Source: Oscillospiraceae bacterium
Lineage (GTDB): Bacteria; Bacillota; Clostridia; Oscillospirales; Ruminococcaceae
Direction: 5' to 3'
DNA: 64,000 nt
NCBI GenBank assembly: GCA_016288755.1
Contig: JAEELE010000074.1
Span: 32,711-96,710 of the forward strand
In this document: in pieces, positions 2,481 through 61,392 of the stretch
How the letters are laid out: each line of letters starts with the position of its first letter
Numbering within the stretch: the stretch's first letter is position 1
The notes under the pieces: generated by a model
Databases searched by the model: none
The model's input: the letters and a program-made list of their open reading frames with translations, nothing else
Told to the model about the DNA's origin: nothing
Translations under genes and position numbers: made by a program

Positions 2481-2600
2481 TTCAGCCGTAATTCAGCGCT
2501 TCGCTAAAAAAATAACAGGCGAAAGAACCGGAAGTGACGGAACAACTCCTCACTTCTCACTTCTAACTTCTCACTTGACTTTCTGCGCCCTCCTGCCCGG
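2481..2600. repeat. Dispersed intergenic repeat, copy R1 (half element, pyrimidine-tract orientation)
   Basis: ggaacaactcctcacttctcacttctaacttctcacttgactttct from 2539. The upstream ttcagccgta... and downstream flank align with copy R5 (39521-39598). Confidence 0.8.
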
Positions 2601-2602
2601 GG

Positions 2603-3520
2603 TCAGTCCCAGATGCCGTGGTCGATCAGCAGGATCTCGCTGTGCGTCGTGCAGATCAGGCTGTGATCGCCGCCGTAGCAGCCGCCGAGCTCCACACATA
2701 GCCCGTCCCAGATCACCCTTTTTGCCGCATCGGGAATGACGGTCCCGGAAGGCAGGTCCCAGCCGATCTGCCGCAGCACCGTATTGGCGCAGAGCGGCAT
2801 CACACGCCGGTCGTAAAACTGCACGCACTGCTCATACATGCTGCGCCCGTTTTTCAGCAGGCGCGCCCGCTCAAACGGAAAAATGTCCCAGAAATCCGGG
2901 GCAAGCTCCTCCTCAGCGGCGAGCTTCATCAGCATCGCCTGCACGATGTGCTTTTCCCGCATGCTGCTGCATTTCGGGAACCGGATCAGATAGAGCACAC
3001 AGCCGACCGGCGGCGCGGGAGACAGATCATAGATCTGCAGAAACGCTTCGTTCCATTCAAGCTCTGCGGCGATCCTGCTGAACCGGTCATAATGCCCGAT
3101 CAGCTTCTCCAGCATATTCAGCAGCTGATAGGACAGGCACGGCAGATCGAGCCGCAGCCTCTCGCTGACTGCCCGCTTCAGCTTCGCAGGCGTCGTGCGG
3201 AGATCGGTCGAATAGAAATACCGGCAATAGACCTGCCCGGACGCAAAAAACTGCATCCGCACATCCGGGACCGTCAGCGAAACGCTGTACCTGCCCTGTG
3301 CATCCAGACAGATCAATGCAATGACGGGGGCATCGGAATCGCCCTCATGCACAGACCAGACCGTGCAGCTGTGTGCGGGCAGCGCGTCAGCCAGCGTGCC
3401 GACCCATGCCGAGAGCATCATGCTGCTGTCAGCCGGCAGCGTAAACTGCGTGCCTGCGCTGTCTGCCAGCTCCGAAAAGCTGTCCCGCACGACCGCGATC
3501 CGGCGCCGCTCTGTGATCAT
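2603..3520 (-). CDS. Hypothetical protein, long paralog of the next gene (C-terminal ~180 aa homologous to 3539..4078)
   Basis: 305 aa ORF. It shares motifs with its neighbour: PDFWDIFPFERARLL vs PDFWQIPVHERAQWL, and the C-termini LLIDHGIWD vs MITEYGVWD. No family recognised by eye. Confidence 0.65.
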   Translation of the reverse strand: MITERRRIAVVRDSFSELADSAGTQFTLPADSSMMLSAWVGTLADALPAHSCTVWSVHEGDSDAPVIALICLDAQGRYSVSLTVPDVRMQFFASGQVYCRYFYSTDLRTTPAKLKRAVSERLRLDLPCLSYQLLNMLEKLIGHYDRFSRIAAELEWNEAFLQIYDLSPAPPVGCVLYLIRFPKCSSMREKHIVQAMLMKLAAEEELAPDFWDIFPFERARLLKNGRSMYEQCVQFYDRRVMPLCANTVLRQIGWDLPSGTVIPDAAKRVIWDGLCVELGGCYGGDHSLICTTHSEILLIDHGIWD

Positions 3521-3538
3521 ACCGCAGCTCCTTTCCGC

Positions 3539-4078
3539 TCAGTCCCAGACGCCGTATTCCGTGATCATCAGCGTGTCCGGCGTGAGGGTCAGCACCTTGT
3601 GGTCAACCGGATACCAATCATCCCCGCCGAGATCAATGCGCTCGCCGCTTCTGATCAACTGCAGCACCGGCTCCGGCAGCGGTTTGTTTCCGGAATACGC
3701 TGCGATTTCCTGCAGCAGCGTATCTGCATCCAGCGGCTGCATGCGCAGTGCCGTGAGAAGAAACTCCCTGCGGAACTCCGGGGCACATTCTGTCAGCCAT
3801 TGTGCACGCTCATGCACCGGGATCTGCCAGAAATCCGGCTCCCAGCCCTCGCCGTCTGCATTCCGCATCAGCAGCGCCTGCACAAAGCGCTCCGGGAGAT
3901 GCGCCTGCACATCCCCCGCCGCAAAGCGTACCGCAAATATGTTGCAGCCCTTCGGATAGCGCGAGGACAAGTCACCGTCGTAAATACACGCCGCCTCTGC
4001 CCATTGCAGATTCACAGCGATCTCACAAAAGCGCGGATAGCTGCTGAGCATTTCGCGCAGGGCTGCCGTGTCGGTCAT
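3539..4078 (-). CDS. Hypothetical protein, short paralog of 2603..3520
   Basis: 179 aa ORF. Its start overlaps the rnc stop by 4 nt (operon-like). Homology to the neighbour is described above. Confidence 0.65.
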   Translation of the reverse strand: MTDTAALREMLSSYPRFCEIAVNLQWAEAACIYDGDLSSRYPKGCNIFAVRFAAGDVQAHLPERFVQALLMRNADGEGWEPDFWQIPVHERAQWLTECAPEFRREFLLTALRMQPLDADTLLQEIAAYSGNKPLPEPVLQLIRSGERIDLGGDDWYPVDHKVLTLTPDTLMITEYGVWD

Positions 4079-4764
4079 ACCTGCTCACCCATCAGCGAGA
4101 GCGCCTCCCTTGCGGCTGCCTGCTCCGCGAGCTTTTTGGAGCGCCCCGTGCCCCTGCCGATCACGTTGGAATTGAGCCGCACCTCGACCGTGAAGGTCTT
4201 GTTGTGGTCGGGGCCCTCTTCGCCGACAAGCACATATTCCACATGCTCCTCGGGGTTCTGCTGGATGACCTCCTGCAGCACGGTTTTATAGTCGTGAAAG
4301 GCGTCCGACGGGCGGTCAAACTGCTCGGGCAGAAAGCGCAGGATATGGCGCTCTGCAGGCTCCATGCCGCCGTCGAGAAAGATTGCCGCGATCACCGCTT
4401 CAAAGGCGTCCGAGAGCACGGAGGGGCGCTCTCTGCCGCCCGACTGGTCCTCGCCGTGCCCCAGCAGCAGAAAATCGCCGAGCCCGAGCCGCTTCGCCCA
4501 CTCATAGAGCGATTTTTCGCACACGAGCGACGCACGGATCTTCGTCAGGTCGCCCTCGGGAAGCTTCGTGTGCCGGAACAGATAATTCGAGACAACGATC
4601 GAAAGCACGCTGTCCCCGAGAAATTCAAGGCGCTCATTGCAGCGCAGTGCCCCGCGCTTTTCGTTCGCGTAAGACGAATGGCAGAGTGCCTCCGTGAGCA
4701 GTGCGGCGTCCTTAAAGGTGTAGCCGATGCGCTGCTCGAGCTCTGTCTGCGGTTTTGCTCCCAT
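4075..4764 (-). CDS. rnc: Ribonuclease III
   Basis: 229 aa with the RNase III signature NERLEFLGDSVL and a C-terminal dsRBD (GPDHNKTFTVEV...GRGTGRSKKLAEQAAA). Confidence 0.95.
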   Translation of the reverse strand: MGAKPQTELEQRIGYTFKDAALLTEALCHSSYANEKRGALRCNERLEFLGDSVLSIVVSNYLFRHTKLPEGDLTKIRASLVCEKSLYEWAKRLGLGDFLLLGHGEDQSGGRERPSVLSDAFEAVIAAIFLDGGMEPAERHILRFLPEQFDRPSDAFHDYKTVLQEVIQQNPEEHVEYVLVGEEGPDHNKTFTVEVRLNSNVIGRGTGRSKKLAEQAAAREALSLMGEQV

Positions 4765-4765
4765 G

Positions 4766-8586: not shown

Positions 8587-10664
8587 AGCGGTCTTTCGTA
8601 GCCGCAGCCGGGGTTTTCACAGACCAGCTTGCCCGCGCGTCCGCCCTTTTTGAAGAGCGTATTCTGACATTTGGGGCAGCGGTCCCCGACCGGCGTCGAC
8701 CATGTCATGAAGCTGCACTCGGGGTATCCCTCGCAGCCGTAGAAGCTGCGCCCCTTCTTCGATTTCTTGATGATGATCTTCTTGCCGCACAGCGGGCAGA
8801 AGCCCTTCGTCGGCAGCACGATCTTCTTGGTGTTGCGGCAGTCCGGGAATCCGGAGCAGGCGAGGAATTTGCCGAAGCGCCCGATCTTGATGACCATCGG
8901 CTTGCCGCAGACATCGCAGACCTCGTCGGTCTCCTCGTCGGGCACGCGCAGACGCTTGCCGTCCATCGCCTTTTCGGCGGTCTCGAGGGTCTTCTCAAAG
9001 CCCTCGTAGAAGGTGCGCAGGCACTCGACCCAGTCGGTCTGCCCGTGCTCCACGCCGTCGAGATCGCTCTCCATGCCGGCGGTAAATTTCACGTCGACGA
9101 TCTGCTTGAACTGCTCCTTCATGAGCTGTGTGGTGACCTCGCCGAGCGAGGTGGGCTTTAATTGCTTGCCGTCGCGCTCGACATACATGCGCGAGAGGAT
9201 CGTGCCGACCGTCGCCGCATAGGTGGACGGACGCCCGATTCCGTTCTCCTCGAGCGCCTTGATCAGCGTCGCCTCGGTGTAGCGGGAGGGCGGCTGCGTA
9301 AAGTGCTGGTTCGCATCGACCGACTTGACCCGGAGCGGGTCGCCCTCGGTCAGCGGCGGCAGCTCCTTGTTGTCCTCCTCGGTCTGTGCGCCGTCCTTCG
9401 CCTCCTCATAGAGGCGGGTGAAGCCGTCGAACTTGACGCTGAACCCGGTCGCGCGGAAGAGGCAGTCTGCGGCGGTGATATCCGCGGAGACCGTGTCGAG
9501 CTGGCAGTTTGCCATCTGGCTCGCGATGAAGCGCTCCCAGATCAGCTTGTAGAGCTTGTACTGATCGGTCGTGAGGCTCGCCTTGACCTGATCGGGCGTC
9601 AGCGCGGGCATGGTCGGGCGGATCGCCTCGTGCGCATCCTGCGCTCCTGCCTTTGTCTTATAGGTCGGCGGGGTCGCCGGGAGATACTGCTTTCCGTAAG
9701 CCTTTGCGATATACGCCGCTGCCGCCGCCTTTGCCTCGTCGGAGACGCGCAGCGAATCGGTACGCATATAGGTGATCAGACCGACCGCGCCGAGGTCGGG
9801 CAGCTCCACGCCTTCATAGAGCTCCTGCGCGGTCTTCATCGTGCGGCGCGCCTGAAAGCTCATGCGGCGCGAAGCCTCCTGCTGGAGCGTCGAGGTGATG
9901 AAGGGCGGCGCGGGCTTGCGGCTCGTCACGCGCTTCTTCACCGATCTGACCACGAATGCCGCTCCCTCCAGCGTCTCGAGAACGGCGTTTGCCTGCTCGC
10001 CGGTCGCGAGCTCCGCCTTTTTGCCGCCGACCTCGACCAGATGCGCCGAGAACACGCGGCGCGAGGATTTCGCGGTCAGCTTGGCGTCGATCGACCAATA
10101 TTCCCGCGGCACAAAGGCGCGGATCTCCTCCTCGCGGTCGACGACCAGACGCACGGCGACCGACTGCACTCTGCCCGCAGAGAGCCCGCGGCGGATCTTG
10201 CGCCAGAGAAACGGGCTGAGCTGATAGCCGACGATGCGGTCGAGGATGCGGCGCGCCTGCTGTGCATTGACCAGATCGAGGTCGATGCGGTGCGGGTGCG
10301 ACATGCCGGTCTGCACGCCGGTCTGGGTGATCTCGTTGAATTCGACACGGTTGTCCTGCGCGATATCGAGCCCCAGAAGCTGCGCTAAATGCCACGAGAT
10401 CGCCTCTCCCTCGCGGTCCGGGTCCGTCGCGAGCCAGACGCGGCTGGCTTTCTTCGCGCGGCTTTTCAGGTCGCGGATGACGTCCTCCTTGCCCTTCATC
10501 TCGATGTAGGTCGGGGCAAAGTCGTGCTCGATATCGACACTGAGCTTGGATTTCGGCAGATCGCGCACATGACCCATCGACGCGACGACCTCAAAGCCCT
10601 TGCCGAGGTATTTCTGAATGGTTTTTGCCTTTGCAGGCGATTCCACGATTACGAGTTCTGACAT
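8583..10664 (-). CDS. topA: DNA topoisomerase I
   Basis: 693 aa. TOPRIM N-terminus (LVIVESPAKAKTIQKYLG), active-site region ITYMRTDS and C-terminal Cys4 zinc ribbons. Confidence 0.96.
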   Translation of the reverse strand: MSELVIVESPAKAKTIQKYLGKGFEVVASMGHVRDLPKSKLSVDIEHDFAPTYIEMKGKEDVIRDLKSRAKKASRVWLATDPDREGEAISWHLAQLLGLDIAQDNRVEFNEITQTGVQTGMSHPHRIDLDLVNAQQARRILDRIVGYQLSPFLWRKIRRGLSAGRVQSVAVRLVVDREEEIRAFVPREYWSIDAKLTAKSSRRVFSAHLVEVGGKKAELATGEQANAVLETLEGAAFVVRSVKKRVTSRKPAPPFITSTLQQEASRRMSFQARRTMKTAQELYEGVELPDLGAVGLITYMRTDSLRVSDEAKAAAAAYIAKAYGKQYLPATPPTYKTKAGAQDAHEAIRPTMPALTPDQVKASLTTDQYKLYKLIWERFIASQMANCQLDTVSADITAADCLFRATGFSVKFDGFTRLYEEAKDGAQTEEDNKELPPLTEGDPLRVKSVDANQHFTQPPSRYTEATLIKALEENGIGRPSTYAATVGTILSRMYVERDGKQLKPTSLGEVTTQLMKEQFKQIVDVKFTAGMESDLDGVEHGQTDWVECLRTFYEGFEKTLETAEKAMDGKRLRVPDEETDEVCDVCGKPMVIKIGRFGKFLACSGFPDCRNTKKIVLPTKGFCPLCGKKIIIKKSKKGRSFYGCEGYPECSFMTWSTPVGDRCPKCQNTLFKKGGRAGKLVCENPGCGYERPL

Positions 10665-14475: not shown

Positions 14476-16314
14476 TCAGACCGGAAATTTGTCGATCAGA
14501 TGTGCAAGATACTCAAGCAGCAGGCTGCTGTCGTCCGCGGTGATGCCTTCGGCGCCGTTCATCTCGGCGTTGATCTTGCCCTGCGCCGAAACCTCGATCT
14601 CCTGATCCTCCGCGAGGAACCGCGCGAGCAGCACGGCATCCGCGACGTTCACCTCGCCCGAGCAGTCGACGTCGCCGGTCAGCTTGGTCAGGACCGGAGC
14701 GGTCGTATCGGGTTCTGTTTCGGTCGTGGTCGTGGTCGTTGTTGTCTCGGTGGTCGTTGTTGTGACGGTGGTCTCGGTGACCTGCGCCTCGCGCCGGACG
14801 ACGGCGGCTGTGTAGTTGACGACGCCGGAGCCGGTCGAATTGCTGCCGAGCACCAGCGACTCGTTTGCGCCGATCTCCTTCGAGAAAATTTCAAAGGTCA
14901 CGGTGTTGTCGGTGTTCGCGACAAGCCCGGTCTGCGTCCAGCTCTTCAGCCAGTTCGGCGTGATGCCCTGCTCCATCGAAAGGCGCGAATCGACCAGCAC
15001 ATAGACGGTGACATCCTCTGCCGCCTTGAGCGTGGCGCAGTCGCCGGACGCATTCTTGGAATCACATGCCGTGCGGATGTACTCCGCGCCGATCAGCTCG
15101 TTGGGCAGTGTGACGTAGGTGAAGGCGCGGTCGCCGAAGACGGCGTCGCCGACCCTGAGCTCGTCGTCGATGCCCCAGTCCGTGCCGGCGATCTGCTCGT
15201 GCACGGTCAGCTTTTCAATCAGCTCGCCGGAAAGTGTGGGCTCCTCCTCGGGCAGCAGCGCCAGATTGACAACATTCTTGCCCCAGTTGCCGTACCAGGC
15301 ATAGCCCGTGCGGCGCTCCTTGCTGATCTCGGAGACGTCGTAATGGACCGAGCTGTCGCGGTCGGAGAAGAGCGGAATCTGCCGGTCGATATCGTAGAAG
15401 CGCGCCCACAGCGGGTCGGCGTTCGCATCCTGCACGACGACCTTGTCATCGCCCTGCGAGACAAATTTGATGCCGGTCAGCGTGACCTTTTGGAACCACC
15501 TGATCGCGGCATTGACCGCGCGCACAATGTCGATGCGGTTGGTCTCCTGCGCGTATTTGTAGAGGAAGGTGATAACGCCCGCGGACTCGCTCGTGCACAG
15601 CGACGGCAGCTCATAGGCGCGTGCGGCAGCGGGAGCGAGCGTGTTCTCGTCGTGCTGCTGGCACCATGCGGTCTTGACGCCGTTGACGGTGATCTGCATG
15701 TCGAGCAGGCACTGGATCGCTTTCTCGAGCGACTGCCCCGCCTTCTGAGCATATTCGTCGCTGACTCCGGTGAAATCGCCGGTCTTGCTGCGCATTTCCT
15801 TCATGATGTCCATGATGTGGAGATAGGCGCCGTCATTGAGCGTGATGTGCGCGTGATAGGTGCCGGGCGTGTTGAGCACCTGCATGTAGCCGCCGTTGGA
15901 ATACTGCATCTTGAAGAGGCAGTCGATGCCGCGCATCGCACAGTCAAAGTATTTCTGCTGCCCGGTCGCCTTCCAGACGCGCATCAGAATGCGGATCTGC
16001 GAGGTGGTCGCATCGTTGTCGACCGTCGAGTGCGACCAGTCGCCGGTCTGCTCGGTCGCCATGCCCTTGCGCCAGCCGCCCTCGCCGGAGATCTGATACC
16101 TGATGCAGTCATCCGCGACGCCGATCGCCTCGGAGGACGATGCCCAGCTCGCGTCCTTTTTCAGATAGGTGCTCCACGGGTAGTCGTCGGCAGCGGCGGA
16201 GGCGGTGATCGCCTGCGGCGCGCAGGGCAGCGCATCGGGCAGATACGCCCCCAGCGACAGCAGCAGTGCTGCGCTCATCACGAAAGCGCCGCGGCGGAGT
16301 GTCTGTTTTCTCAT
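14476..16314 (-). CDS. Secreted pectate lyase (PL10-like) with a CBM-like module, Thr linker and type I dockerin
   Basis: 612 aa. Signal peptide MRKQTLRRGAFVMSAALLLSLGA. PelA/Pel-15E-like core (GEGGWRKG, VDNDATTSQIRILMRVW, MQYSNGGY). A ~140 aa beta-module (FGDRAFTYVTLPNELIGAEYIRTACD). Poly-Thr linker. Dockerin GDVDCSGEVNVADAVLLARFLAED...ITADDSSLLLEYLA. Confidence 0.75.
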   Translation of the reverse strand: MRKQTLRRGAFVMSAALLLSLGAYLPDALPCAPQAITASAAADDYPWSTYLKKDASWASSSEAIGVADDCIRYQISGEGGWRKGMATEQTGDWSHSTVDNDATTSQIRILMRVWKATGQQKYFDCAMRGIDCLFKMQYSNGGYMQVLNTPGTYHAHITLNDGAYLHIMDIMKEMRSKTGDFTGVSDEYAQKAGQSLEKAIQCLLDMQITVNGVKTAWCQQHDENTLAPAAARAYELPSLCTSESAGVITFLYKYAQETNRIDIVRAVNAAIRWFQKVTLTGIKFVSQGDDKVVVQDANADPLWARFYDIDRQIPLFSDRDSSVHYDVSEISKERRTGYAWYGNWGKNVVNLALLPEEEPTLSGELIEKLTVHEQIAGTDWGIDDELRVGDAVFGDRAFTYVTLPNELIGAEYIRTACDSKNASGDCATLKAAEDVTVYVLVDSRLSMEQGITPNWLKSWTQTGLVANTDNTVTFEIFSKEIGANESLVLGSNSTGSGVVNYTAAVVRREAQVTETTVTTTTTETTTTTTTTETEPDTTAPVLTKLTGDVDCSGEVNVADAVLLARFLAEDQEIEVSAQGKINAEMNGAEGITADDSSLLLEYLAHLIDKFPV

Positions 16315-24282: not shown

Positions 24283-24351
24283 AAGGAGTTGTTCCGCACA
24301 GACAGCCGGGAGCATCCTCATTTCTCATTTCTCACTTCTCATTTCTCATTC
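24283..24351. repeat. Dispersed intergenic repeat, copy R2 (short, internally deleted form)
   Basis: ggagttgttccgcacagacagccgggagcat (core at 24285-24295) is joined directly to cctcatttctcatttctcacttctcatttctcattc (24316-24351). Confidence 0.8.
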
Positions 24352-26075: not shown

Positions 26076-26462
26076 ACCAAAAGGGCTTGGGGTTCACGCT
26101 CCAAGCCCTTTGTCTGTCCAATGCAGGGAGGAGGGAGGAGGGAGAAGGGAGGAGTTGTTCCCGCACGGAGCCCGCGCTGGCATTTCCCCGGTCACCGTTT
26201 CGCGGAGCCTCCCAGTATTGTGCAGCACACGGCGCTGGCGCGCCTTCTTGCGGCGCGATACTCCCAGCCTTTGGCGAGATCAGCTGCTGAAAGAACAATC
26301 GTACAAGGGGTTTGGGGCTTGCCCCATTCAAATCCATCGCGTAGCGATTCCGCCATTATTCTTTCTTCTTTATTCTTTTCCTTCCTCCCTCCTTCTTCCT
26401 ATTTCCTACCTCGCAAAAAATGAACTGAGGGCTTGGAGTGTCACGCTCCAAGCCCTTTTGAT
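26076..26462. repeat. Dispersed intergenic repeat, copy R3: full-length palindromic-ended element flanked by duplicated hairpins
   Basis: Left hairpin GGGCTTGGGG-ttcacg-CTCCAAGCCC (26083-26108). Purine tract gggaggagggaggagggagaagggagg plus core ggagttgttcc (26126-26161). About 195 nt of conserved interior. Complementary pyrimidine tract (26357-26412). Right hairpin GGGCTTGGAG-tgtcacg-CTCCAAGCCC (26429-26455). Confidence 0.85.
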
Positions 26463-34594: not shown

Positions 34595-34636
34595 AAAAAA
34601 CACTCCTTTGCACAATACTGAATGCACAAAGGAGTG
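34595..34636 (-). terminator. Riboswitch expression-platform hairpin (terminator that also sequesters the SD)
   Basis: The minus strand reads CACUCCUUUGUGCA-loop-GUGCAAAGGAGUG, then UUUUUU, then AUG. The AAGGAG SD is in the 3' arm of the stem. Confidence 0.75.
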
Positions 34637-36292: not shown

Positions 36293-36349
36293 TTGACAAA
36301 TACCCCCGATGGGTATATAATAGAAGCAGAAAATACCCGTCCGGGGTAT
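36293..36349 (+). promoter_or_regulatory. csoR-copA promoter with two CsoR-type operators
   Basis: TTGACA (36293-36298), 17 nt spacer, TATAAT (36316-36321). The palindrome ATACCCCCGATGGGTAT (36300-36316) fills the spacer. A second palindrome ATACCCGTCCGGGGTAT (36333-36349) lies just downstream. Confidence 0.75.
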
Positions 36350-36368
36350 CATGAACGGAGGGCAACGC

Positions 36369-36680
36369 ATGGAACATGATCTGAATACGCCGTGCTGCTG
36401 TCAGAAGCACACCGCGCGCTCCGACGAGGAGCGGAAACGGCTCATCAACCGCCTGAGGCGCATTGAGGGGCAGGTGCGCGGGCTGCAGAGCATGCTCGAA
36501 AAGGACGCCTACTGCACCGATATTCTCACGCAGTGCGCGGCGGTCAAGGCGGCGCTCAATGCCTTCGACCGCGATCTGCTCGCAAGGCATATCCGCACCT
36601 GCGTCGTGCGCGACCTGAAAAACGGCGACGAATCCGTCATCGACGAGCTCGCCGACACCATTCAAAGAATGATGAAATGA
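36369..36680 (+). CDS. csoR: CsoR-family copper-sensing transcriptional repressor
   Basis: LINRLRRIEGQVRGLQSMLEKDAYCTDILTQCAAVKAAL is a CsoR/RcnR signature with the ligand Cys. ATG at 36369 lies 6 nt after GGAGGG. Confidence 0.88.
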   Translation: MEHDLNTPCCCQKHTARSDEERKRLINRLRRIEGQVRGLQSMLEKDAYCTDILTQCAAVKAALNAFDRDLLARHIRTCVVRDLKNGDESVIDELADTIQRMMK

Positions 36681-36860
36681 GCGCGGAGCCCGCGCGGGCA
36701 TTTCCCTTCGGGTACATTGCAGCGGAGCCTCCCAATACTACATAATGCACGGCGCTGATCGCGCCTTCTTATCAGTCATTTCTCCCAATGCTTCTATAAA
36801 TCAGCGGCGGGAACAACAGCACCGGAACAGCTCCTCACTCCTCACTCCTAACTTCTAACT
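36681..36860. repeat. Dispersed intergenic repeat, copy R4 (left-arm half element) between csoR and copA
   Basis: gcgcggagcccgcgcgggcatttccc...gcggagcctcccaatacta...ggcgctgatcgcgccttctt aligns with 26165-26250 of R3. It ends with ggaacagctcctcactcctcactcctaacttctaact (36824-36860). Confidence 0.85.
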
Positions 36861-39418: not shown

Positions 39419-39598
39419 AAGCGAGGAGTGAAAAGTGAGGAATGAGAAGTGAGAAACGGCGGTATCGCTTCGTGATGGATTTTGAATGAGGCAAGCCCCA
39501 AGTCCCTTGTGCAACCTTCGTTCAGCCGCTTATCCCGGATAACGGAACAACTCCTCCCTTCTCACTCCCAACTTCTCACTCGGCTTTCTCTCTCCTAC
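39419..39598. repeat. Dispersed intergenic repeat, copy R5 (right-arm half element, opposite orientation)
   Basis: Purine tract gaggagtgaaaagtgaggaatgagaagtgagaaa (39423-39456). ggcggtatcgcttcgtgatggattttgaatgaggcaagccccaagtcccttgt aligns with the reverse complement of 26296-26354. It ends with ggaacaactcctcccttctcactcccaacttctcact. Confidence 0.85.
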
Positions 39599-39684
39599 CA
39601 TAAAATTTTTTCTGCGCCGTGTGATATTTGACCCGCCTCGGTTGTTTGTGTAGTGAAAGGTCTTTCAGAAGGAGCGCAGATTCC

Positions 39685-40158
39685 ATGGAACAGGCACAGA
39701 TGGCGGAAATCTACGACCGCCTCAAAAACACGGTCTACCGCACGGCACTCGCCTACTGCCGCAATGTGCAGGACGCCGAGGATATCACGCACGATATGTT
39801 TCTCAAGCGGTTTGCGCGGGAGCAGCCCTTTCCCGATGCGGAATCGGAAAAGGCTTGGATGCTCCGCGTGACGGTCAACGCATGCAAAAACCTGCTTCGG
39901 TGCTTCCGAAGACGGCATTCCGTGCCGCTCGACGACGCAAAGGAGCTCTGCGTCACGCCCGAGGAGCACACGCTCTGGGAGGCGGTCTGCGCGCTGCCCG
40001 CGAAATACCGCCTTGTCATCCACCTCTATTATTATGAGGGGTATTCCGTCCGCGAGATCGCACAGATGCTCAGAAAAACAGAGACCGCCGTACAGACGCA
40101 GCTTTACCGCGCAAGAAAGCTGCTGCGCGAGGCGCTCGGAGAGGAGATCACACCGTGA
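39685..40158 (+). CDS. ECF-type sigma-70 family RNA polymerase sigma factor
   Basis: 157 aa from the ATG at 39685 (GAAGGAG upstream). Region 2 DAEDITHDMFLK, region 4 GYSVREIAQMLRKTETAVQTQLYRARKLL. Confidence 0.85.
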   Translation: MEQAQMAEIYDRLKNTVYRTALAYCRNVQDAEDITHDMFLKRFAREQPFPDAESEKAWMLRVTVNACKNLLRCFRRRHSVPLDDAKELCVTPEEHTLWEAVCALPAKYRLVIHLYYYEGYSVREIAQMLRKTETAVQTQLYRARKLLREALGEEITP

Positions 40159-40937: not shown

Positions 40938-40943
40938 AACAGG

Positions 40944-40973
40944 GGGCTTGGAGCACAAACTCCAAGCCCTTTG
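40944..40973 (+). terminator. Terminator hairpin belonging to the conserved GGGCTTGGAG...CTCCAAGCCC family
   Basis: GGGCTTGGAG-cacaaa-CTCCAAGCCC, then TTTG. The following ttgcttgtccgcaatacc resembles tttgtctgtccaatgc after the hairpin at 26083-26108. Confidence 0.7.
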
Positions 40974-42818: not shown

Positions 42819-43448
42819 GTGGCTTTTGACTACAAAAAGGAAATGAAGGCGCTCTACGCACCGAAGGCTGAGCCCGCGATCGTCACCGTGCCGAAGGCGG
42901 CGTTTCTCGCGGTGCGCGGCGAGGGCGACCCAAACGCCGAGGGCGGCAGCTATGCGCAGGCACTGAATGTGCTCTATGCCCTCGCCTACACGCTGAAAAT
43001 GAGTCCGAAAAGCGGGCACGCGATCCCGGGATATTTTGAATATGTCGTGCCGCCGCTCGAGGGCTTCTGGCGCACCGAGAAGCCCGGGATGCCCGACCTG
43101 ACCGACAAATCCGCGTTTCAGTGGATCTCGGTCATCCGCCTGCCGGAGTTTGTCACGCAGGCGGAATTTGCTTGGGCGGTCGAAATGGCATCGCGCAAAA
43201 AGCAGCTCGACTGTTCCGCTGCCGGGCTGCTGGAGATCGAGGAGGGGCTCTGCGTGCAGATGCTGCACGTCGGACCCTATGACAACGAGCCCGCGACCGT
43301 CGCGCGCATGGACGCCTTCGCCGCGGAGCAGGGCTATGTGACGGATTTCTCCGACACGCGGCTGCACCATGAGATCTACCTCTCCGACCCGCGCCGCACC
43401 GCCCCCGAAAAGCTGAAAACAGTCATCCGGCACCCGATCAGGAAATGA
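42819..43448 (+). CDS. GyrI-like small-molecule-binding domain protein
   Basis: 209 aa. Typical MAFDYKKEMKALY...FLAVRGEGDPN...EGFW...QMLHVGPYDNE...HEIYLSDPRR pattern. Confidence 0.75.
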   Translation: MAFDYKKEMKALYAPKAEPAIVTVPKAAFLAVRGEGDPNAEGGSYAQALNVLYALAYTLKMSPKSGHAIPGYFEYVVPPLEGFWRTEKPGMPDLTDKSAFQWISVIRLPEFVTQAEFAWAVEMASRKKQLDCSAAGLLEIEEGLCVQMLHVGPYDNEPATVARMDAFAAEQGYVTDFSDTRLHHEIYLSDPRRTAPEKLKTVIRHPIRK

Positions 43449-43521
43449 GAAATGAAAAATGAGAAATGAGAAATGGAGCAGTCACCTTTGCGCTGAAGCC
43501 TTTCGCAAGGATTGCTGCTCC
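43441..43521. repeat. Dispersed intergenic repeat, copy R6 (purine heptad tract plus hairpin)
   Basis: ggaaatgagaaatgaaaaatgagaaatgagaaatggag begins within the last codons and stop of the preceding gene. It is followed by the hairpin GGAGCAG...CTGCTCC (43475-43521). Confidence 0.75.
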
Positions 43522-47600: not shown

Positions 47601-49862
47601 TTACAGGCTCTTGCGGATGCCTGCAAGATACTCGAGGATCGCCGTCAGGTCGCCTGCACCGATGCCGGAGACACCGTCGCAGTCCGCATTGAGCTTGCCG
47701 ATCGAGGAAACGGTGATCTCCTTGTCCTCGGCATTGAAGCGTGCGAGCAGAACTGCGTCTGCAACCGTGACCTGATTATCGCAGTCGACGTCGCCGAGCA
47801 TGGTGGGCTGGTTATTCGAGGGCTGCGGGGTCGTGGTGGTCGTCGTGGTCGTGGTGGTCGTGGTGGTCGTTGTCTCGGTGGTGGGCTTGGTGGTGGAGGT
47901 CGCACCGTCAAGATAGAACTTCACGGAGTCGATCTTGAATTCCTGGCAGTCGACCCACCAGAAGCCGACCTTCAGAGAACCGTCGTAGTTATACTGAATG
48001 ATGTTTGCGACGCTGGAGGACGGCTCCCAGCTGATCGTGCCGCTGGTGCCGCTGATCGTCTGGGTGATCTCGTCGCTCATGTACCAGTAGCCGTCTGCTT
48101 CCACGGTGGTGGAGGTGCCGAATGCGCCGACATACTTGTTGATGCTCTGACCGTTGGTCGAGGAGATGTTGACTTCGACCTTCTTGATCTTCGCGGTGGA
48201 GCCTTCCAGACCGAAATCCTTATACGGGAATTCGACCATGCGCTTGTCCTCAGGCAGTGCCTGCAGCCCGCTGATGGTGTAGGACTTGCCGACCTTGACC
48301 TCGACGGTATCGCCGTTGACGCTCGGGGTGTCCGAACCGCCGGTGACGATCGGCTCAGTGCCCTGCTTCGGGGTCGTGGTGGTCTCCTGCGGCTGATCGG
48401 AGGACGGGGTCGTGGTGATCGAGGAACCGTCATCGAGCACGACGCTCTTCACGCCGGTGATGTTGGAATCGGGCGTGCCGGACTTGGCTGCTGCGCACAG
48501 ACCTGCTGCTGCGCCGACGAGACATGCGTTGTAGTCAACAGCGACCTCGTTGCCGACATAGTCCTGCACGGAATCCGTGTAGACCAGCGGGCCGGAGCCG
48601 TCTTCGTTCTGTGCGTAGGGACCGCCTGCAAGTGCGCCGATCAGCATCTTGCCGTTGGGACCGTACTGGGTATTCTTGCCGAGCTCATCGTAGTTGTTGT
48701 AGCCGGATGCTGCTCTGTAGTGTGCATTCTTGGTGGAATTGGAGGCGTAGCCGGTCACGAAGCAGGTATTGAACGGGTTCTGACCGAGGATGTAGCTCAT
48801 CTGACCCTGGCACCAGGAATTGAAGCTGCCGTGACCGCGCTTGGTCGCGACCAGTGCTGCCAGCTGCATGCCGCAGTTCAGTCTTGCGCTGCCCCATCTG
48901 TCAAGGTGATAGTAGCCGTCCTTCATCTTGCTGCTCATGGAACCTTCCATCCAGGAGGTAACGCCGTTCCACTCGCCGGTGATCTCAGCGCGCAGGATCT
49001 CTGCGCCCTGTGCGACGGTGTTCCAGTTGTGGACCCAGCCGAGATACTGCTCTCTGTGCGCAACCATCTCTTCCTTGTAGTAGTTATCCTTCGTTGCGAG
49101 ATAGAGCCATGCTGCAGCCCACTCCTGCTCGTCCTTCGCGCTCGCGTTGCTGCCTGCATAGTAGAAGGTCTGACCGTTCTCTGTCGGACCGTTGGTCTCG
49201 ATCTTGTTGTACTGCGTGGAGAACTTGTACAGCGCCTTAGCGACCTTCAGGGACTCCTCATCGCCGTAGAACAGATAATCCTGTGCGAGCGCTGCCGCGT
49301 AGTCGCCTGCGATGTCGCTGGCACTGTTGGTGGTCCAGTACATCTTTCTGCCGCCCGGCTGATTCTCAGGCGCGCCCCAGTAGGAGTGATCCTCCACGCC
49401 GGAGCCCTTCTGATACAGGAACTCGGAAACGCTGTCGCCGTTCATCTTGACGGATGCCTTGAAGAAATTGGTGAAGTGCTTGAAAATGGTCTTGAAGTGT
49501 GTTTCCTGCTTTGCCTGCTTGAACGCCTCCGGAAACTCGTAGTACGCCCAGCCGATGGTCGATGCGGCATAGCCCTGCGGCAGACCGAACATTGCATGGT
49601 CGCCGGCATCGTGATAGCCGCCGGGAACCGCGTCGTCGGTGTGGCAGTTGCCGCGCCATGACATTGCGCCCTGCGACTCGACGTCCTTGCCGCACATGTT
49701 GGCGTCAAAGAAGTACAGAGAATACTGCAGGAGTCTTGCGTAGTTGGCATCGGCTGCCTTTGCCGGTTCCGGGGTCGTGCTGCCGGGAAGCGCGAAGCAT
49801 CCGAGTGCGAGCACCGCTCCGGTACACAGTGCGCCCATGCGTTGGGTAAAGGTTCTGATCAT
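47601..49862 (-). CDS. Cellulosomal GH9 endoglucanase with an unassigned ~140 aa module (GH9 - X - Thr linker - dockerin)
   Basis: 753 aa. Signal peptide. GGYHDAGDHAMFGLP and FVTGYASNSTKNAHYRAASG. A module at nt ~47900-48320. A run of 14 Thr within a longer Thr-rich linker. Dockerin GDVDCDNQVTVADAVLLARFNAED...GAGDLTAILEYLA. Confidence 0.9.
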   Translation of the reverse strand: MIRTFTQRMGALCTGAVLALGCFALPGSTTPEPAKAADANYARLLQYSLYFFDANMCGKDVESQGAMSWRGNCHTDDAVPGGYHDAGDHAMFGLPQGYAASTIGWAYYEFPEAFKQAKQETHFKTIFKHFTNFFKASVKMNGDSVSEFLYQKGSGVEDHSYWGAPENQPGGRKMYWTTNSASDIAGDYAAALAQDYLFYGDEESLKVAKALYKFSTQYNKIETNGPTENGQTFYYAGSNASAKDEQEWAAAWLYLATKDNYYKEEMVAHREQYLGWVHNWNTVAQGAEILRAEITGEWNGVTSWMEGSMSSKMKDGYYHLDRWGSARLNCGMQLAALVATKRGHGSFNSWCQGQMSYILGQNPFNTCFVTGYASNSTKNAHYRAASGYNNYDELGKNTQYGPNGKMLIGALAGGPYAQNEDGSGPLVYTDSVQDYVGNEVAVDYNACLVGAAAGLCAAAKSGTPDSNITGVKSVVLDDGSSITTTPSSDQPQETTTTPKQGTEPIVTGGSDTPSVNGDTVEVKVGKSYTISGLQALPEDKRMVEFPYKDFGLEGSTAKIKKVEVNISSTNGQSINKYVGAFGTSTTVEADGYWYMSDEITQTISGTSGTISWEPSSSVANIIQYNYDGSLKVGFWWVDCQEFKIDSVKFYLDGATSTTKPTTETTTTTTTTTTTTTTTPQPSNNQPTMLGDVDCDNQVTVADAVLLARFNAEDKEITVSSIGKLNADCDGVSGIGAGDLTAILEYLAGIRKSL

Positions 49863-56070: not shown

Positions 56071-56116
56071 AAAAAATGACCCGGCACAGAGCGCTCCGTG
56101 CCGGGTCTGTTTTGTG
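56071..56116. terminator. Bidirectional terminator
   Basis: ACCCGGCAC-10 nt-GTGCCGGGT. It is flanked by AAAAAA upstream (a T-run for the minus strand) and CTGTTTTGTG downstream. Confidence 0.7.
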
Positions 56117-56120
56117 AGAA

Positions 56121-56190
56121 TCAGCCGAGTGTGACGACGATCTCATTGACCTCCGCGAGCTGTTCTGCCGGCAGGACGGGGAACCCCCGC
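56121..56190 (-). pseudogene. Orphan 3'-terminal fragment homologous to the end of the cellobiose phosphorylase gene
   Basis: The minus-strand frame reads ...GFPVLPAEQLAEVNEIVVTLG*, versus ...EGNFLPAEQLAEVNEIVVTLG* for the intact gene end at 56259-56320. About 52 nt are near-identical, with only synonymous differences (gca/gcg, gag/gaa, gga/ggc). Confidence 0.7.
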
Positions 56191-56258
56191 CGGTATTTCC
56201 CCCGCATGCAGACAAATCGGCACGGACAAAAACGCCGTGCCGATCGTTATTGTTGATT

Positions 56259-58652
56259 TCATCCGAGTGTGACGACGATCTCATTGACCTCTGCGAGCTG
56301 CTCTGCGGGCAGGAAATTGCCCTCGACCGGCTTGCCGTTCACGGTCATCGCCTTCACGCCGCTCTGGACGTGGTTCGGATTCTGCACGTCGATGTTCAGC
56401 TTCTTGCCGCGGAACAGCTTGTGAATCTTAAAGCCGTCCCATGCCGCCGGGATCGACGGGTCAATGCGCAGACCGCCGAGCTCCGTGCGCATGCCGCAGA
56501 TGCCCTCGACGCAGCCGACCATCACGGTCGAGGCAGTGCCGGTGAGCCAGTGCACATGCGAACGCCCTGCAAACGGCGAGCGGGTCGCCTCGGTGAACTG
56601 CCCGTGGACATACGGCTCCATGACGCGAATCTCTGCTTTGTCGTTCATCGCGGCGGGCGAGGACTCCATGAAATACTCAAACGCTCTGTCGCCGTGCCCG
56701 AGCAGTGCCTCCGCGAGGATCAGCCAGCCCTGCGACTGCGAGAAGATGCCGCCGTTCTCCTTGGTGTCCGGGTTGAAGATGTGCATGAGCGCGCCGTCGA
56801 AATAGTGATCGACATAGGGCGGCTCGAGCAGCTTTGCGCCGTAGGGCGTGTTGAGGATGCTGTGCACGCTCTCCATCGCCTTCTCCGCCTGCTCTGCGCT
56901 CGCAAACTGCGAAATGACCGACCAGCTCTGCGGATTCAGCCACATGCTCGCCTCGGGGTCTGCCTTCGCGCCGACGACTGTGCCGTCCTCGCGGATGCCG
57001 CGGATGAAGCGGTCCTCGTCCCAGCAGGCTGCGAGCGACTTGCCGAGCTCTGCCTGTGCCTTCTCCAGATATGCGATGTAATCGGTGTCATTCTTTGCCT
57101 TCGCCATCTCGAGCATCTCGCGGATCGCGTACCAGAGCTGGAATGCGACGAACGTCGATTCGCCCTTTGCGCCCAGACGCAGGCAGTCGTTCCAGTCCGC
57201 GTGCAGACCGGCGGGCATATGGTGTGCACCGAGCCGCTCCATCGAGAACCGGATCGCGCGCTTTAAGTGCCCGTAGACGGTGTCCTCGCCGCCGTTCGCG
57301 TAGACGATGACCTCATCGAGGAATGCCTGATTGCCCGACTCGCCGATGTACTTGATGATCGTCGGGAAGAGCCAGAGCGCGTCGTCTGCGCGGTAGGACG
57401 GGTGACCGGTCTCCTTGACGTATTCGGGGTCATCCGGGGTATTCTCGTGACCGGCGTTGTGGTTGAACTTGACCAGCGGCAGACCGCCGCCGTTGTCGAC
57501 CTGTGCCGAGAGCATGAAGCGGATCTTTTCGAGCGCCATCTCCGGGTTGAGGTGGATGATGCCCTGAATATCCTGCACGGTGTCGCGGTAGCCGTAGCCG
57601 TTGCGCTCGCCGCAGTAGATCAGCGATGCCGCGCGGCTCCAGATCGAGGTGATGAAGCACTGATAGGCATTCCAGACATTGATCATGTTGTTGAACTCGT
57701 CCGACGGGGTCTCGACCTCGAAGTGCGAGAGCTGCTCGTGCCAGTAGGCGCGGAGCTTTTCGATCTCGGCGTCCGCGGTGCCGGAGGTCTCATACTTTTT
57801 CAGAATCTCGGCTGCCTCTGCGGAATTGCGCTGCCCGAAGACATAGGTGAGGACCTTGGTCTCGCCCGGCTGCAGCTCGATATCGGACTGCAGAGCGCCG
57901 CAGGCGTTGGAGTTGTAATTCATCGTGCCGTCGCATCTGCCGTTTTCCACCGCGATCGGGTTGGAGTAGGTGCGGTAGGGACCGATGAAGGCAGAGAGGT
58001 CGCCGTTTGCGGAGGCAACGGGTGCACCGGCGACGCCGAAGAAGCGCTCCTTGTGGTTGGAGCCGGAAGCGTCCTTGCCGGAATTCTCGTTGATGTGCTG
58101 GATGATGCGGTTGCCGCCCTCGAAGCTGGTGCGGGTGATGAAGAGCGTGTACTGGAGGTTCACCTGATCCTGCTGATAGTTGCTCTCGTTGGTGAACTCG
58201 ATGAAGCCGGTGACGGCGAGCCTTCTGGGCTTGTCCGAGGTATTGGTGATCCTGCACTGCCAGACCTCGTAGGTGTCCGGGACATAGTAGGTCGTCACGG
58301 TCTCGATGCCGGCATACTCGGATTCGAGCACGGTATAGGCGGTGCCGTGGCGGCAGACGGACTTGTACTGCTCGACCGGCTTGCCCACGGGCTGCCACGA
58401 TGCCGACCAGTAATCGCGGGTCTCACGGTCGAACAGATAGATGTATCTGCCCGGGAGCGCCATCATGGAATTGAAGCGGAATCTGCCGATTCTGCCGTTC
58501 GCGCCGGACTTGACAAAGCTGTAGCCGGCGGCATTGTTCGAGATGATCGCACCGTACTCCGGGTCGCCGAGGTAGTTGGACCATGCCGAAGGAGTGTCGG
58601 GGCGGGTGATCACATATTCTTTGTTTGCGAGATCAAAGTAACCGTATTTCAT
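56259..58652 (-). CDS. cbp: Cellobiose phosphorylase (GH94)
   Basis: 797 aa. N-terminus MKYGYFDLANKEYVITRPDTPSAWSNYLG parallels known cellobiose phosphorylases. No signal peptide. Confidence 0.9.
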   Translation of the reverse strand: MKYGYFDLANKEYVITRPDTPSAWSNYLGDPEYGAIISNNAAGYSFVKSGANGRIGRFRFNSMMALPGRYIYLFDRETRDYWSASWQPVGKPVEQYKSVCRHGTAYTVLESEYAGIETVTTYYVPDTYEVWQCRITNTSDKPRRLAVTGFIEFTNESNYQQDQVNLQYTLFITRTSFEGGNRIIQHINENSGKDASGSNHKERFFGVAGAPVASANGDLSAFIGPYRTYSNPIAVENGRCDGTMNYNSNACGALQSDIELQPGETKVLTYVFGQRNSAEAAEILKKYETSGTADAEIEKLRAYWHEQLSHFEVETPSDEFNNMINVWNAYQCFITSIWSRAASLIYCGERNGYGYRDTVQDIQGIIHLNPEMALEKIRFMLSAQVDNGGGLPLVKFNHNAGHENTPDDPEYVKETGHPSYRADDALWLFPTIIKYIGESGNQAFLDEVIVYANGGEDTVYGHLKRAIRFSMERLGAHHMPAGLHADWNDCLRLGAKGESTFVAFQLWYAIREMLEMAKAKNDTDYIAYLEKAQAELGKSLAACWDEDRFIRGIREDGTVVGAKADPEASMWLNPQSWSVISQFASAEQAEKAMESVHSILNTPYGAKLLEPPYVDHYFDGALMHIFNPDTKENGGIFSQSQGWLILAEALLGHGDRAFEYFMESSPAAMNDKAEIRVMEPYVHGQFTEATRSPFAGRSHVHWLTGTASTVMVGCVEGICGMRTELGGLRIDPSIPAAWDGFKIHKLFRGKKLNIDVQNPNHVQSGVKAMTVNGKPVEGNFLPAEQLAEVNEIVVTLG

Positions 58653-58684
58653 AGCAACCTCCTGAAGACAAAATAAGTATCTTC

Positions 58685-58813: not shown

Positions 58814-58843
58814 GGTCATATTGATCTGATAGGAGTGCTCGCC

Positions 58844-59605: not shown

Positions 59606-59690
59606 AGCGGGAAATGAGAAATGAGAAGTGAGGAGTGAGGAGTTGTTCCCGTGTTTTGCAAAGCAAAACCGGCGCGTTTGCCGATCGGCA
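59606..59690. repeat. Dispersed intergenic repeat, copy R7 (purine tract + core + hairpins)
   Basis: gaaatgagaaatgagaagtgaggagtgaggagttgttcc (core at 59639-59649), then GTTTTGC-aaa-GCAAAAC and the palindrome tgccgatcggca. Confidence 0.8.
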
Positions 59691-59747
59691 GACTTGCGCA
59701 TCTCCGCATTCATATAAAGAATCCGATAAAAAAATTTCCGCCCTCGT

Positions 59748-60386
59748 GTGGGGATTCGGCGCGCGCGTCCGAATACAATGGTGAGGGCGAACGGTGAGGT
59801 GATGGATGTGACCGTCATGGAAGACACAGCCTTGCTTGCCCTGATGCGGGAGCGTCCGGAAAAGGGCTGTGAGCAGCTCCTGCAGCAGTATACCGGTCTG
59901 GTGCTGGCGATCGTGCGCCGGCGGCTCGGCGGCTGCACCTTCTGCACGGCAGAGGACATGGAGGAGCTCGCAAGCGATATCCTCTTCGCCTTCTGGCAGC
60001 AGCGGGAGCGCGTGACCCCCGACCGCGGCACAGTGCGCGCGCTGCTCGCAACCATGACCGGCAGGCGCTGTATCGACTGGTATCGGGCACATGCGGCAAG
60101 GGCTGTGATGCAGTCCCCCGAGGAGCTCAGCGAGACGGTTCAGGACCCGACAGCAGCACCCGATGAACAGGCTGTCACCAACGACCGCAAGCGCGAGCTG
60201 CTTGCCGCGATCCGCGCACTCGGCGAACCGGACTGTGAAATACTGCTCCGGAAATATTACAACGGGGAGACCGCAGCGTCCATCGCAGAACGGCTCTCCA
60301 TGCGAACGGGCACCGTAGAGATGCGAATTTCACGCGCGATGAAAAAGCTGCGTACCATGCTGGGAGGTGATGAGGATGCGTCTTGA
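59748..60386 (+). CDS. ECF-type sigma-70 family RNA polymerase sigma factor
   Basis: Region 2 (AEDMEELASDILFAFW) and region 4 (GETAASIAERLSMRTGTVEMRISRAMKKL). The true start is uncertain (ATG 59778, 59802 or 59817). Confidence 0.8.
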   Translation: MGIRRARPNTMVRANGEVMDVTVMEDTALLALMRERPEKGCEQLLQQYTGLVLAIVRRRLGGCTFCTAEDMEELASDILFAFWQQRERVTPDRGTVRALLATMTGRRCIDWYRAHAARAVMQSPEELSETVQDPTAAPDEQAVTNDRKRELLAAIRALGEPDCEILLRKYYNGETAASIAERLSMRTGTVEMRISRAMKKLRTMLGGDEDAS

Positions 60387-61245
60387 GGATGAGCTCACAA
60401 AGCTGATGACAGCACTGACGGACGAAGAGGCAGCCGAGCTGATCGCAGAATTCTCCGCACCGGTCGATCCGGCGGCTGAGGCACGCATCCGCACCGCTGT
60501 GCAGGAGCGGGCATTCCCCCGGCAGAGAATCAGGCTGACACATATGCGGTATGTCTATACCGCTGCGGCAGCTAGTCTGATCGTCTGTCTTTCCGTCGCG
60601 GCAGCAATGTTTCTCCTGAACCGCCCGCAGCGCCCGCCGGTCGTCCCCGGCAGTGAAACGGTCACGGAAACAACGGCATCAGCGGAAAACAGTGCAGCCA
60701 CCGGCGGCGTATCTGAGGACAGCGGGCACGGGAGCGATTCCGCCCCGGCACAGACCACAGCCGCATTGCAGACGGACACTGCACAGTCGACAGAATCCGG
60801 CGTCACCGCGCAGACGACGGCTACCACAGAGAGCAGGACAGAATCCGTTTCCGCGACCGCAGACCCGCCGAAAACAGAGAACAGCGCACAGCAGACCGCC
60901 GTCACGCAGACGACCGTGTCCGCGCAGAGCACCGTCACGCAGAGCACCGTCGGGCAGAGCACTGTCACGCAGAGCACTGCGTCGACCACACGCACGACGA
61001 CCGCGACCCTGCACACCACAGCGTCGACGACGGTCACCCGTGCAACGACTGCGCAGTCCTCGACCAATACAGACCGCATGCCGTCATCCGACAAGGAAAT
61101 CGAAGGACCCACCGGACCGGATGAGCCCGTCGAGGACGGGAACTCCGGCGCACCGATGACCAGTGCATCTGCCGGAGCAGGTCCCCCGCCCGACTGGAAC
61201 GACGTGACGGAGACCACCACGACCGAGACAGAACCGGTCCACTGA
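60376..61245 (+). CDS. Putative anti-sigma factor with a Thr/Ser/Gln-rich low-complexity ectodomain
   Basis: ATG at 60376 lies 8 nt after GGAGG and overlaps the sigma gene end. One TM helix (YVYTAAAASLIVCLSVAAAMFLL). The ectodomain is dominated by TAQ/STVTQ repeats. Confidence 0.6.
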   Translation: MRLEDELTKLMTALTDEEAAELIAEFSAPVDPAAEARIRTAVQERAFPRQRIRLTHMRYVYTAAAASLIVCLSVAAAMFLLNRPQRPPVVPGSETVTETTASAENSAATGGVSEDSGHGSDSAPAQTTAALQTDTAQSTESGVTAQTTATTESRTESVSATADPPKTENSAQQTAVTQTTVSAQSTVTQSTVGQSTVTQSTASTTRTTTATLHTTASTTVTRATTAQSSTNTDRMPSSDKEIEGPTGPDEPVEDGNSGAPMTSASAGAGPPPDWNDVTETTTTETEPVH

Positions 61246-61256
61246 TATGAATGCAG

Positions 61257-61290
61257 CCCCGGAGAGCAGGTGCTTTCCGGGGACTTTTTT
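61257..61290 (+). terminator. Intrinsic terminator after the anti-sigma gene
   Basis: CCCCGGA-12 nt-TCCGGGG, then ACTTTTTT. Confidence 0.7.
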
Positions 61291-61304
61291 CGCCCTTTCG
61301 GCAT

Positions 61305-61392
61305 GAGGCAGGAAGGAGGAGGCAGCAGGTGCCCGAAACCCGGGCTCAGCAGCAGAAATGAACTTGACGGAACAGCTCCTCCCTCCTCCGTG
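61305..61392. repeat. Dispersed intergenic repeat, copy R8 (miniature palindromic form)
   Basis: ggaaggaggaggcagcagg ... gcccgaaacccgggc ... ggaacagctcctccctcctccg (core at 61369-61379). Confidence 0.75.

Follow-up and report, generated by a model that had tools for sequence, protein, structure and literature searches.

A family of mosaic repeats with heptanucleotide heads between the genes of an Oscillospiraceae bacterium

Several bacterial groups carry repeats assembled as mosaics of shorter modules, among them BOX (boxA-boxB(n)-boxC), BIME and NIME, and some BIMEs attenuate within operons (PMC3049150). Here we describe repeats in a 64,000-nt stretch of DNA from Oscillospiraceae bacterium (assembly GCA_016288755.1, contig JAEELE010000074.1, forward strand, positions 32,711-96,710; hereafter the window), in which an initial annotation had pointed to eight sites that share a heptad-like tract, an 11-nt core and longer conserved arms. 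These sites probably belong to a family of mosaic repeats specific to a lineage of uncultured rumen-type Oscillospiraceae; its members are small, non-coding and non-autonomous, and are comparable to pneumococcal BOX and enterobacterial BIMEs. The family is apparently undescribed, although its kind, the BOX/BIME/NIME-like mosaic, is already familiar; what is new is a head in which three heptanucleotide microsatellites follow one another in order.

BOX elements of Streptococcus pneumoniae and S. suis resemble the family in being small, non-coding, multi-copy and intergenic with an uncertain mobilising enzyme, and they too are rich in stem-loops, differ in module sets across related species and are often co-transcribed with their neighbours (PMC3049150). 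A further likeness, in architecture only, lies in fixed end modules combined with an internal unit of variable tandem number. In contrast, BOX has neither a heptad head nor the 11-nt core, its terminal inverted repeats resemble ISSpn2 whereas no matching insertion sequence (IS) was found near the copies here, and homology is not expected for a family hosted by high-GC Oscillospiraceae. BIME and repetitive extragenic palindromic (REP) elements of enterobacteria and pseudomonads are mobilised by RAYT tyrosine transposases. These elements, like the NIMEs of Neisseria, are extragenic mosaics of palindrome plus motif with defined orders, tandem clusters and no target-site duplication, and one unit of our family, module A, likewise ends in a GC palindrome within an extragenic mosaic. 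Unlike them, the family apparently has no GTAG-type tetranucleotide (the alignment of A shows no GTAG-like conserved motif adjoining the hairpin), its units are longer (107 nt for A), its heptad arrays have no counterpart among them, and no RAYT-like gene came to light in the 0.9 Mb of loci that bear its copies.

Two other kinds of repeat invite comparison. The STRR arrays of heterocystous cyanobacteria, reportedly described by Mazel et al. in 1990, are tandem heptanucleotide arrays dispersed over many non-coding sites of one genome, as ours are, but they belong to a different phylum, consist of other heptamers (CCCCAGT and others as against GAGAAGT and GGAGGGA) and are free-standing, whereas the arrays of the family form part of a larger ordered element. 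Miniature transposable elements with inverted repeats (MITEs, such as Correia, RUP and Nezha) and eukaryotic Foldback elements are similarly short, non-autonomous and multi-copy, and a Foldback-like subset of the family (sites 3, 5 and 8 of the window and copies in L141 and L240; L-numbers are our labels for related loci and contigs of the comparison set) has inverted arms built of short tandem repeats. Unlike MITEs, the family is mostly one-armed and not AT-rich, lacks target-site duplications, and has arms that match their own partners no better than those of other copies.

Recurrence within and beyond the window

The modules recur in the window far more often than its composition predicts. 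The core GGAGYTGTTCC occurs seven times against 0.06 expected from dinucleotide-preserving shuffles, a count reached by 0 of 100 shuffles, and the double heptad RTGAGRARTGAGRA occurs 19 times with at most one mismatch against 0.27 expected, all 19 matches lying in the eight sites. With Tandem Repeats Finder, seven sites yield period-7 arrays and one, 61305-61392, yields none; self-BLAST recovers both conserved arms (26163-26297 with 36681-36818, 68% over 138 nt; 26275-26390 with the reverse complement of 39420-39537, 74% over 119 nt). Reading each site bears out the shared modules, the heptad tract and the arms that had been proposed; the core holds as well, except at 43441-43521, which has none. 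All eight sites are intergenic by gene calls based on G+C at third codon positions (GC3), as had been claimed, and together they occupy 8 of the 33 spacers longer than 50 nt, which amounts to 1.9% of the window (60% G+C) and some 14% of the non-coding DNA in it. When 11-mer frequencies were mapped along the window to look for extra copies, codon-bias k-mers swamped the map.

The family is also abundant outside the window, so that a lack of further copies, which the initial annotation had named as a refutation, clearly does not apply. A 20-mer probe covering the last heptads and the core, GAGRAGKGAGGAGYTGTTCC, matched at least 116 further metagenome contigs, mainly JAEEGL01 and JAEEGK01 records, which hold at least 166 more cores in 0.91 Mb (58.7% G+C); the listed contigs and the window pooled give 147 non-identical core instances. 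Copies occur in ERZ842401, OCVV01, the JAEEGK/JAEEGL series, and Logan and ENA assemblies, and the named relatives of the window CopA are exclusively proteins from metagenome-assembled genomes (MAGs) called "Oscillospiraceae bacterium", at 69% identity or less. A search of reference genomes with the 15-mer GKGAGGAGTTGTTCC gave only chance matches in unrelated phyla. Viral contigs, a plasmid collection and a phage collection gave zero family matches, and a phage or plasmid origin was rejected on that ground. The initial annotation had recognised no named element, and we agree: Rfam has no match even at E<=10, and a string search of the literature with the core found only unrelated primers.

One could suppose that nothing has dispersed at all and that the sites reflect independent local slippage of low-complexity DNA or metagenome mis-assembly, since the arrays are of low complexity and most of the related contigs come from a single metagenome project. 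However, the similarity extends well beyond the tracts: the non-repetitive 11-nt core, segment D, the ~107-nt module A and module B recur in fixed order with sharp boundaries, and the same composites stand in independent records and assemblies, for example in the window and in L115, a contig of metagenome assembly GCA_016295295.1 that is identical to part of the window. We therefore regard this explanation as extremely improbable and effectively refuted.

Ordered anatomy and the eight sites

The tract, core and arms of the initial annotation are parts of one ordered element. Read in core orientation, it runs through three head arrays (e, g and s), the core and segment D to a tail of either A(n) or B-T. 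The first head array is (RTGAGAA), that is, GAGAAAT/GAGAAGT units, with a frequent ATGGC end; the second is (GGAGGGA/GGAGGTA/GGAGCAG), followed by GGTCRAGTTAG; and the third, (GAGTGAG)n, directly precedes the core GGAGTTGTTCC, after which segment D reads GTCACyTTCACTTCTGCTGCTGATTGAGAGAA. Type I tails consist of one to three head-to-tail copies of the ~107-nt module A, which is the first arm of the initial annotation read from the opposite strand and carries short GC hairpins in each unit; we found 59 non-identical near-full A units, with tandem arrays in L120, L137, L141, L171, L189 and L196. Type II tails consist of module B (the second arm, ...GGGGCTTGGGGCGAAGCCCCATTCAAATCCATCGCGAAGCGATTCCGCC) and a T-rich box, ATTATTCTTTATTCTTTC, often with reversed arrays through which the element can fold back. 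In many copies only the head is present, with a sharp end immediately past the core, and module content varies freely from copy to copy. The heptamers recorded are GAGAAAT/GAGAAGT, GGAGGGA/GGAGGTA, GAGTGAG and AATGCGG, and a sister subfamily combines (GAATGCG)n arrays with the core variant GGAATTGTTCC. Heptads stay in register with the core over at least 45 nt of the ungapped consensus, which fits array change by whole units.

Family members lie essentially never within genes, and they occupy convergent, divergent and tandem spacers alike. The orientation of the core relative to flanking genes is random (29 tandem-same, 40 tandem-opposite, 28 convergent, 22 divergent), as is that of modules A, B, D and T. 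Where arrays contain TGA, the purine strand stops all three frames. The pyrimidine strand of the arrays is open in every frame, so they will confuse gene callers. We also observed a hairpin-rich dispersed module, W (AAAATGGGATTCCAAAGGGGTAGTACCCCTTTGGC...), in 25 copies that often form inverted pairs (L121, L122, L123, L125, L155 and L175; L236 9189-9268; L237 4480-4559). In L135 (5143-5611), a head, core, partial A and reversed array have a consensus-like promoter on one side and a tRNA-like sequence on the other, an arrangement from which the element may be transcribed as a tRNA leader.

The eight sites of the window and their parts are as follows.

2519..2583, minus strand: site 1, a solo head with array, core and short D-like segment
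~2519-2538: D-like segment of site 1, GTCACTTCC...
2539-2549: core of site 1, GGAGTTGTTCC
~2550-2583: heptad array of site 1, GTGAGAA/GTTAGAA
24285..24350, plus strand: site 2, core and reversed array
24285-24295, plus strand: core of site 2, followed by a 21-nt spacer
24315-24350, purine strand minus: reversed (GAGAAAT/GAGAAGT) array of site 2
26082..26111, no strand: terminator-like hairpin left of site 3, a non-family module
26112..26427, plus strand: site 3, a Type II composite
26125-26154: (GGGAGGA)n array of site 3
26151-26161: core of site 3
26163-26267: module A of site 3, a reverse insertion between core and B, with a CAGCAGCTGA leader to ~26297
26303-26354: module B of site 3
26350-26378: T box of site 3, CCGCCATTATTCTTT...
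26379-26410: reversed purine array of site 3
26428..26458, no strand: terminator-like hairpin right of site 3, the second copy
36680..36860, minus strand: site 4, canonical Type I
36680-36787: module A of site 4
36788-36823: segment D of site 4
36824-36834: core of site 4, GGAGCTGTTCC
36832-36860: array of site 4
39419..39598, minus strand: site 5, canonical Type II, a foldback
39419-39455: 3' arm of site 5, a reversed heptad array; the site folds back on itself
39458-39512: module B of site 5
39513-39543: D-like segment of site 5
39544-39554: core of site 5
39555-39598: head of site 5
43442..43521, plus strand: site 6, degenerate and core-less, array and D-like segment
43442-43475: (GAAATGA)n array of site 6
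59606..59709, plus strand: site 7, with a hairpin-rich tail
59610-59643: head arrays of site 7
59639-59649: core of site 7
61305..61392, minus strand: site 8, a short foldback
61305-61329: 3' pyrimidine arm of site 8
61346-61368: segment D of site 8, GTCAAGTTCATTTCTGCTGCTGA, followed by a GC hairpin
61369-61379: core of site 8, GGAGCTGTTCC
61380-61392: head of site 8, GGAGGAGGGA

Site 1 is flanked by the stop of gene 2603-3520(-) and by a GNAT acetyltransferase gene, 2019-2468(-), and site 2, in a divergent spacer, precedes the TTGACA/TATAAT promoter of an SSF transporter gene by about 40 nt. Of the span first assigned to site 3, 26076-26462, the composite at ~26112-26427 stands, while the ends are the two non-family hairpins, which are 31-bp near-identical direct copies (26082-26111 and 26428-26458) bracketing the composite and may be a footprint of its origin. 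A third similar terminator-like hairpin lies at 40939-40973, with the shared motif GGGCTTGG...CCAAGCCC.

The spacer that separates csoR from copA holds site 4, in which a T-rich tail follows a weak terminator-like hairpin; as the only promoter-like site is at 36293-36321, the element apparently lies inside the csoR-copA transcript. At 36293-36350, upstream of csoR, lie a promoter that matches the consensus perfectly (TTGACA-17-TATAAT) and, after it, the palindrome ATACCCGTCCGGGGTATC, presumably the CsoR operator; L117 and L237 show this arrangement too. Site 5 is flanked by copA and a gene for an extracytoplasmic function (ECF)-type sigma factor. At site 6, the stop codon of the upstream gene 42819-43448 is supplied by the first heptad unit of the array that starts at 43442, in keeping with the overlap that had been noted there, and the D-like GTCACCTTTGCGCTGAA segment sits within a GGAGCAG...CTGCTCC hairpin. 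Site 7, which has a DUF389 gene on one side and a gene for an ECF sigma factor on the other, probably reaches ~59709, past the end first given at 59690, with a vestigial reversed array end, CTCCGCATTCA, at ~59699-59709.

Turnover, structure and spread

Presence, absence and replacement of elements are all seen at orthologous loci, and the family turns over fast. In a relative whose CopA is 92% identical to that of the window (L116; 88% nucleotide identity over 11 kb), the spacers orthologous to those of sites 3, 4 and 5 (SSF-downstream, csoR-copA and copA-downstream) are short and plain, and 15 kb contain zero family modules. An 84% relative, L117, retains remnants only: upstream of copA a piece of an array, and downstream of it a piece resembling A. 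Further arrays in L117 are (TAAATAATACGG)n between the csoR promoter/operator and the start codon (430-490) and (GATAGTTTATCAT)n upstream of a GH9 gene (8755-8810). The orthologous loci L194 and L210 have a common head upstream of a holA-like gene and differ in heptad number, heptad type and tail modules, and in a 78% relative, L240, a complete foldback member separates a response-regulator gene from a kinase gene. The most telling case is L238, which matches the window at 90.2% nucleotide identity over 2.3 kb with a conserved spacer upstream of the DUF389 gene: its DUF389-sigma spacer holds an inverted head of the sister subfamily, (GAATGCG)n plus GGAATTGTTCC, at the position of window site 7, and site 7 itself keeps a vestige of the L238-type (GAATGCG) array. 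Heads, cores and A units are absent from 70% relatives with 53-55% G+C, in which a W+B-like unit immediately precedes the ribosome-binding site within the csoR 5' leader (L236 and L237). Many copies, a conserved module order and turnover at orthologous sites together support the dispersed, non-autonomous, REP-like family that the initial annotation had envisaged.

That annotation also offered structured RNA modules, and the copies could indeed be non-coding or cis-regulatory RNAs (leaders, attenuators, terminators or mRNA stabilisers) acting in their neighbours' transcripts. Several copies lie in probable transcripts, including site 4, the L240 copy and the W+B unit in the csoR 5' untranslated region of L236/L237; sites 3, 5 and 8 fold back through their purine/pyrimidine arms with z of -1.5 to -2.2; and of three specified short hairpins for which compensatory pairs were counted, one, the terminal GC palindrome of module A, shows them (CG to GC at two stem positions, 29 and 16 cells, with three discrete stem variants). 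A DNA palindrome, however, would yield the same compensatory pattern, and the remaining tests argue against RNA. Every module is randomly oriented and convergent, divergent and tandem spacers are used equally, module content is free to vary between copies, and RNAalifold finds almost no consensus structure in the 59 A units (5 pairs, -4.0 kcal/mol), and a global RNA structure for A was rejected on that ground. Site 4, of Type I, folds no better than shuffles (z -0.5). A search of the window against Rfam reached gathering score only for a THF riboswitch elsewhere in it, and twelve element-rich loci gave nothing, with only noise of at most 19 bits at E<=10. Most of the evidence accordingly points to a DNA element, and an RNA function for the family seems to us quite doubtful.

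Three narrower structural ideas were also set aside. In a hairpin with the core as its loop, positions -k and +(k+1) pair no better than shuffled partners. The co-varying purine/pyrimidine arms suggested by sites 3, 5 and 8 gave no significant difference between own and other partners, an element's 5' and 3' arms being no more complementary to each other than to those of other elements (135 elements; 13 Type II elements). GNA triloops in module B, considered as a signature of single-stranded DNA (ssDNA) hairpins, are clean in only 8 of 11 cases and ambiguous with GNRA tetraloops.

A DNA element might instead be kept by the host as a signal: an array or core that binds a nucleoid or regulatory protein, a recombination hot-spot or a phase-variable promoter spacer. 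Heads often abut the promoter -35 boxes of divergent genes (L130, L136, L139, L140 and L144), different elements recur at one spacer in related strains, and (GGAGGGA)n with n>=4 fits both the G3N4 x4 quadruplex motif and a homopurine mirror repeat, from which a G-quadruplex or H-DNA role of these arrays might be inferred. In the window, two of the eight sites are immediately upstream of genes for ECF-type sigma factors (39628-40158 and 59748-60386), and an element stands within 400 nt upstream of 5 of 13 ECF sigma genes as compared with 127 of 662 other genes, a weak association. Yet copies are found as frequently in convergent spacers and at the 3' ends of genes as they are near promoters, polymorphism in heptad number is absent among near-identical contigs, and close relatives have no elements at the same genes. 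We consider such host-kept signals unlikely as an account of the family.

We favor a family of mosaic repeats whose copies, we infer, spread to new spacers at the DNA level, by a trans-acting enzyme or by recombination between copies. Once in place, arrays would be remodelled by whole-heptad slippage, the number of A units would be altered by unequal exchange, and modules would insert into or replace one another locally. Effects on adjacent genes would be by-products, such as co-transcription, a weak attenuator-like hairpin or stop codons supplied by TGA-containing arrays.

Several observations weigh against this account. Clustering of 675 open reading frames (ORFs) from element-bearing loci yielded no mobilising enzyme and nothing beyond ordinary families of paralogues (sigma factors, response regulators, ABC ATPases and LRR proteins), with no recurrent flanking RAYT, IS200/IS605 transposase or reverse transcriptase. 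No target-site duplication rises above the control: in 110 composites, the longest direct repeat shared by left and right flank does not exceed that of mismatched flank pairs, the only exception being the 31-bp hairpin duplication around site 3. Terminal inverted repeats are inconsistent across copies, with inverted arms in sites 3, 5 and 8, L141 and L240 and none in Type I and solo copies. Transposition is for these reasons suggested rather than demonstrated, and the MITE label of the initial annotation finds no support in the form given, since no duplication exceeds the control and terminal inverted arms characterise a minority of copies. Inverted head pairs around a sigma/anti-sigma operon were considered as composite-transposon ends, but the operon is likewise present in a 96% relative, and synteny is different in 78% relatives. 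The copies in the window are moreover diverged from one another (68% for A units, 74% for B units) and yet absent at orthologous sites of the 88%-identical genome, which calls for several diverged sources, loss from the relative or locally fast evolution. No 7-nt length polymorphism separates contig pairs of 90% identity or more (87 kb compared), which leaves array slippage without direct observation on short timescales. Finally, host function may be selected at some sites.

A more radical alternative is a new type of mobile DNA, in which heptad arrays are added enzymatically during mobilisation (by templated repeat addition through a reverse transcriptase or telomerase-like activity, or by a hairpin/ssDNA transposase) or in which G-quadruplex or H-DNA arrays create recombination hot-spots. 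A programmed hot-spot at occupied spacers would explain the replacement of heads at the same site in close strains; all the same, we give a new mobile DNA type little credence.

The mosaic family that we favor alone changes no general principle, but it is among the fastest-changing parts of these genomes and offers a ready strain-typing marker, and it will confuse assemblers and screens for non-coding RNA in rumen Oscillospiraceae MAGs. Elements inside operons (csoR-copA, response-regulator/kinase) and beside promoters are candidates for strain-level expression differences. Through the family one can also approach, in a tractable setting, the spread of BOX/BIME-like mosaics that have no evident transposase, terminal inverted repeat or target-site duplication.

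Other features of the window

The THF riboswitch lies at 34652-34773 on the minus strand (78.8 bits; gathering score 36), upstream of gene 33998-34627 (-), whose L116 orthologue is annotated ECF_trnsprt / ECF-ribofla_trS. A 96-nt tandem repeat at 30192-30651 (4.8 copies, 94% matches) falls within the minus-strand ORF 29063-31255 and presumably encodes a repetitive protein domain or linker. A shared module of ~270 nt that contains GGTCGT-rich simple repeats, with 62-80% identity among its copies, occurs at 14491-14779, 21036-21146, 45659-45941 and 47601-47892, near the ends of four large genes, one or more of them for a GH9 cellulase; the copies probably encode domains of dockerin or linker type in cellulolytic enzymes. 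A 42-nt inverted repeat (56072-56113) and an 81-nt direct repeat (56096-56176 and 56235-56314, 83% identical) occupy the spacer and the 3'-terminal region of gene 56259-58652 and resemble a local gene-end duplication.

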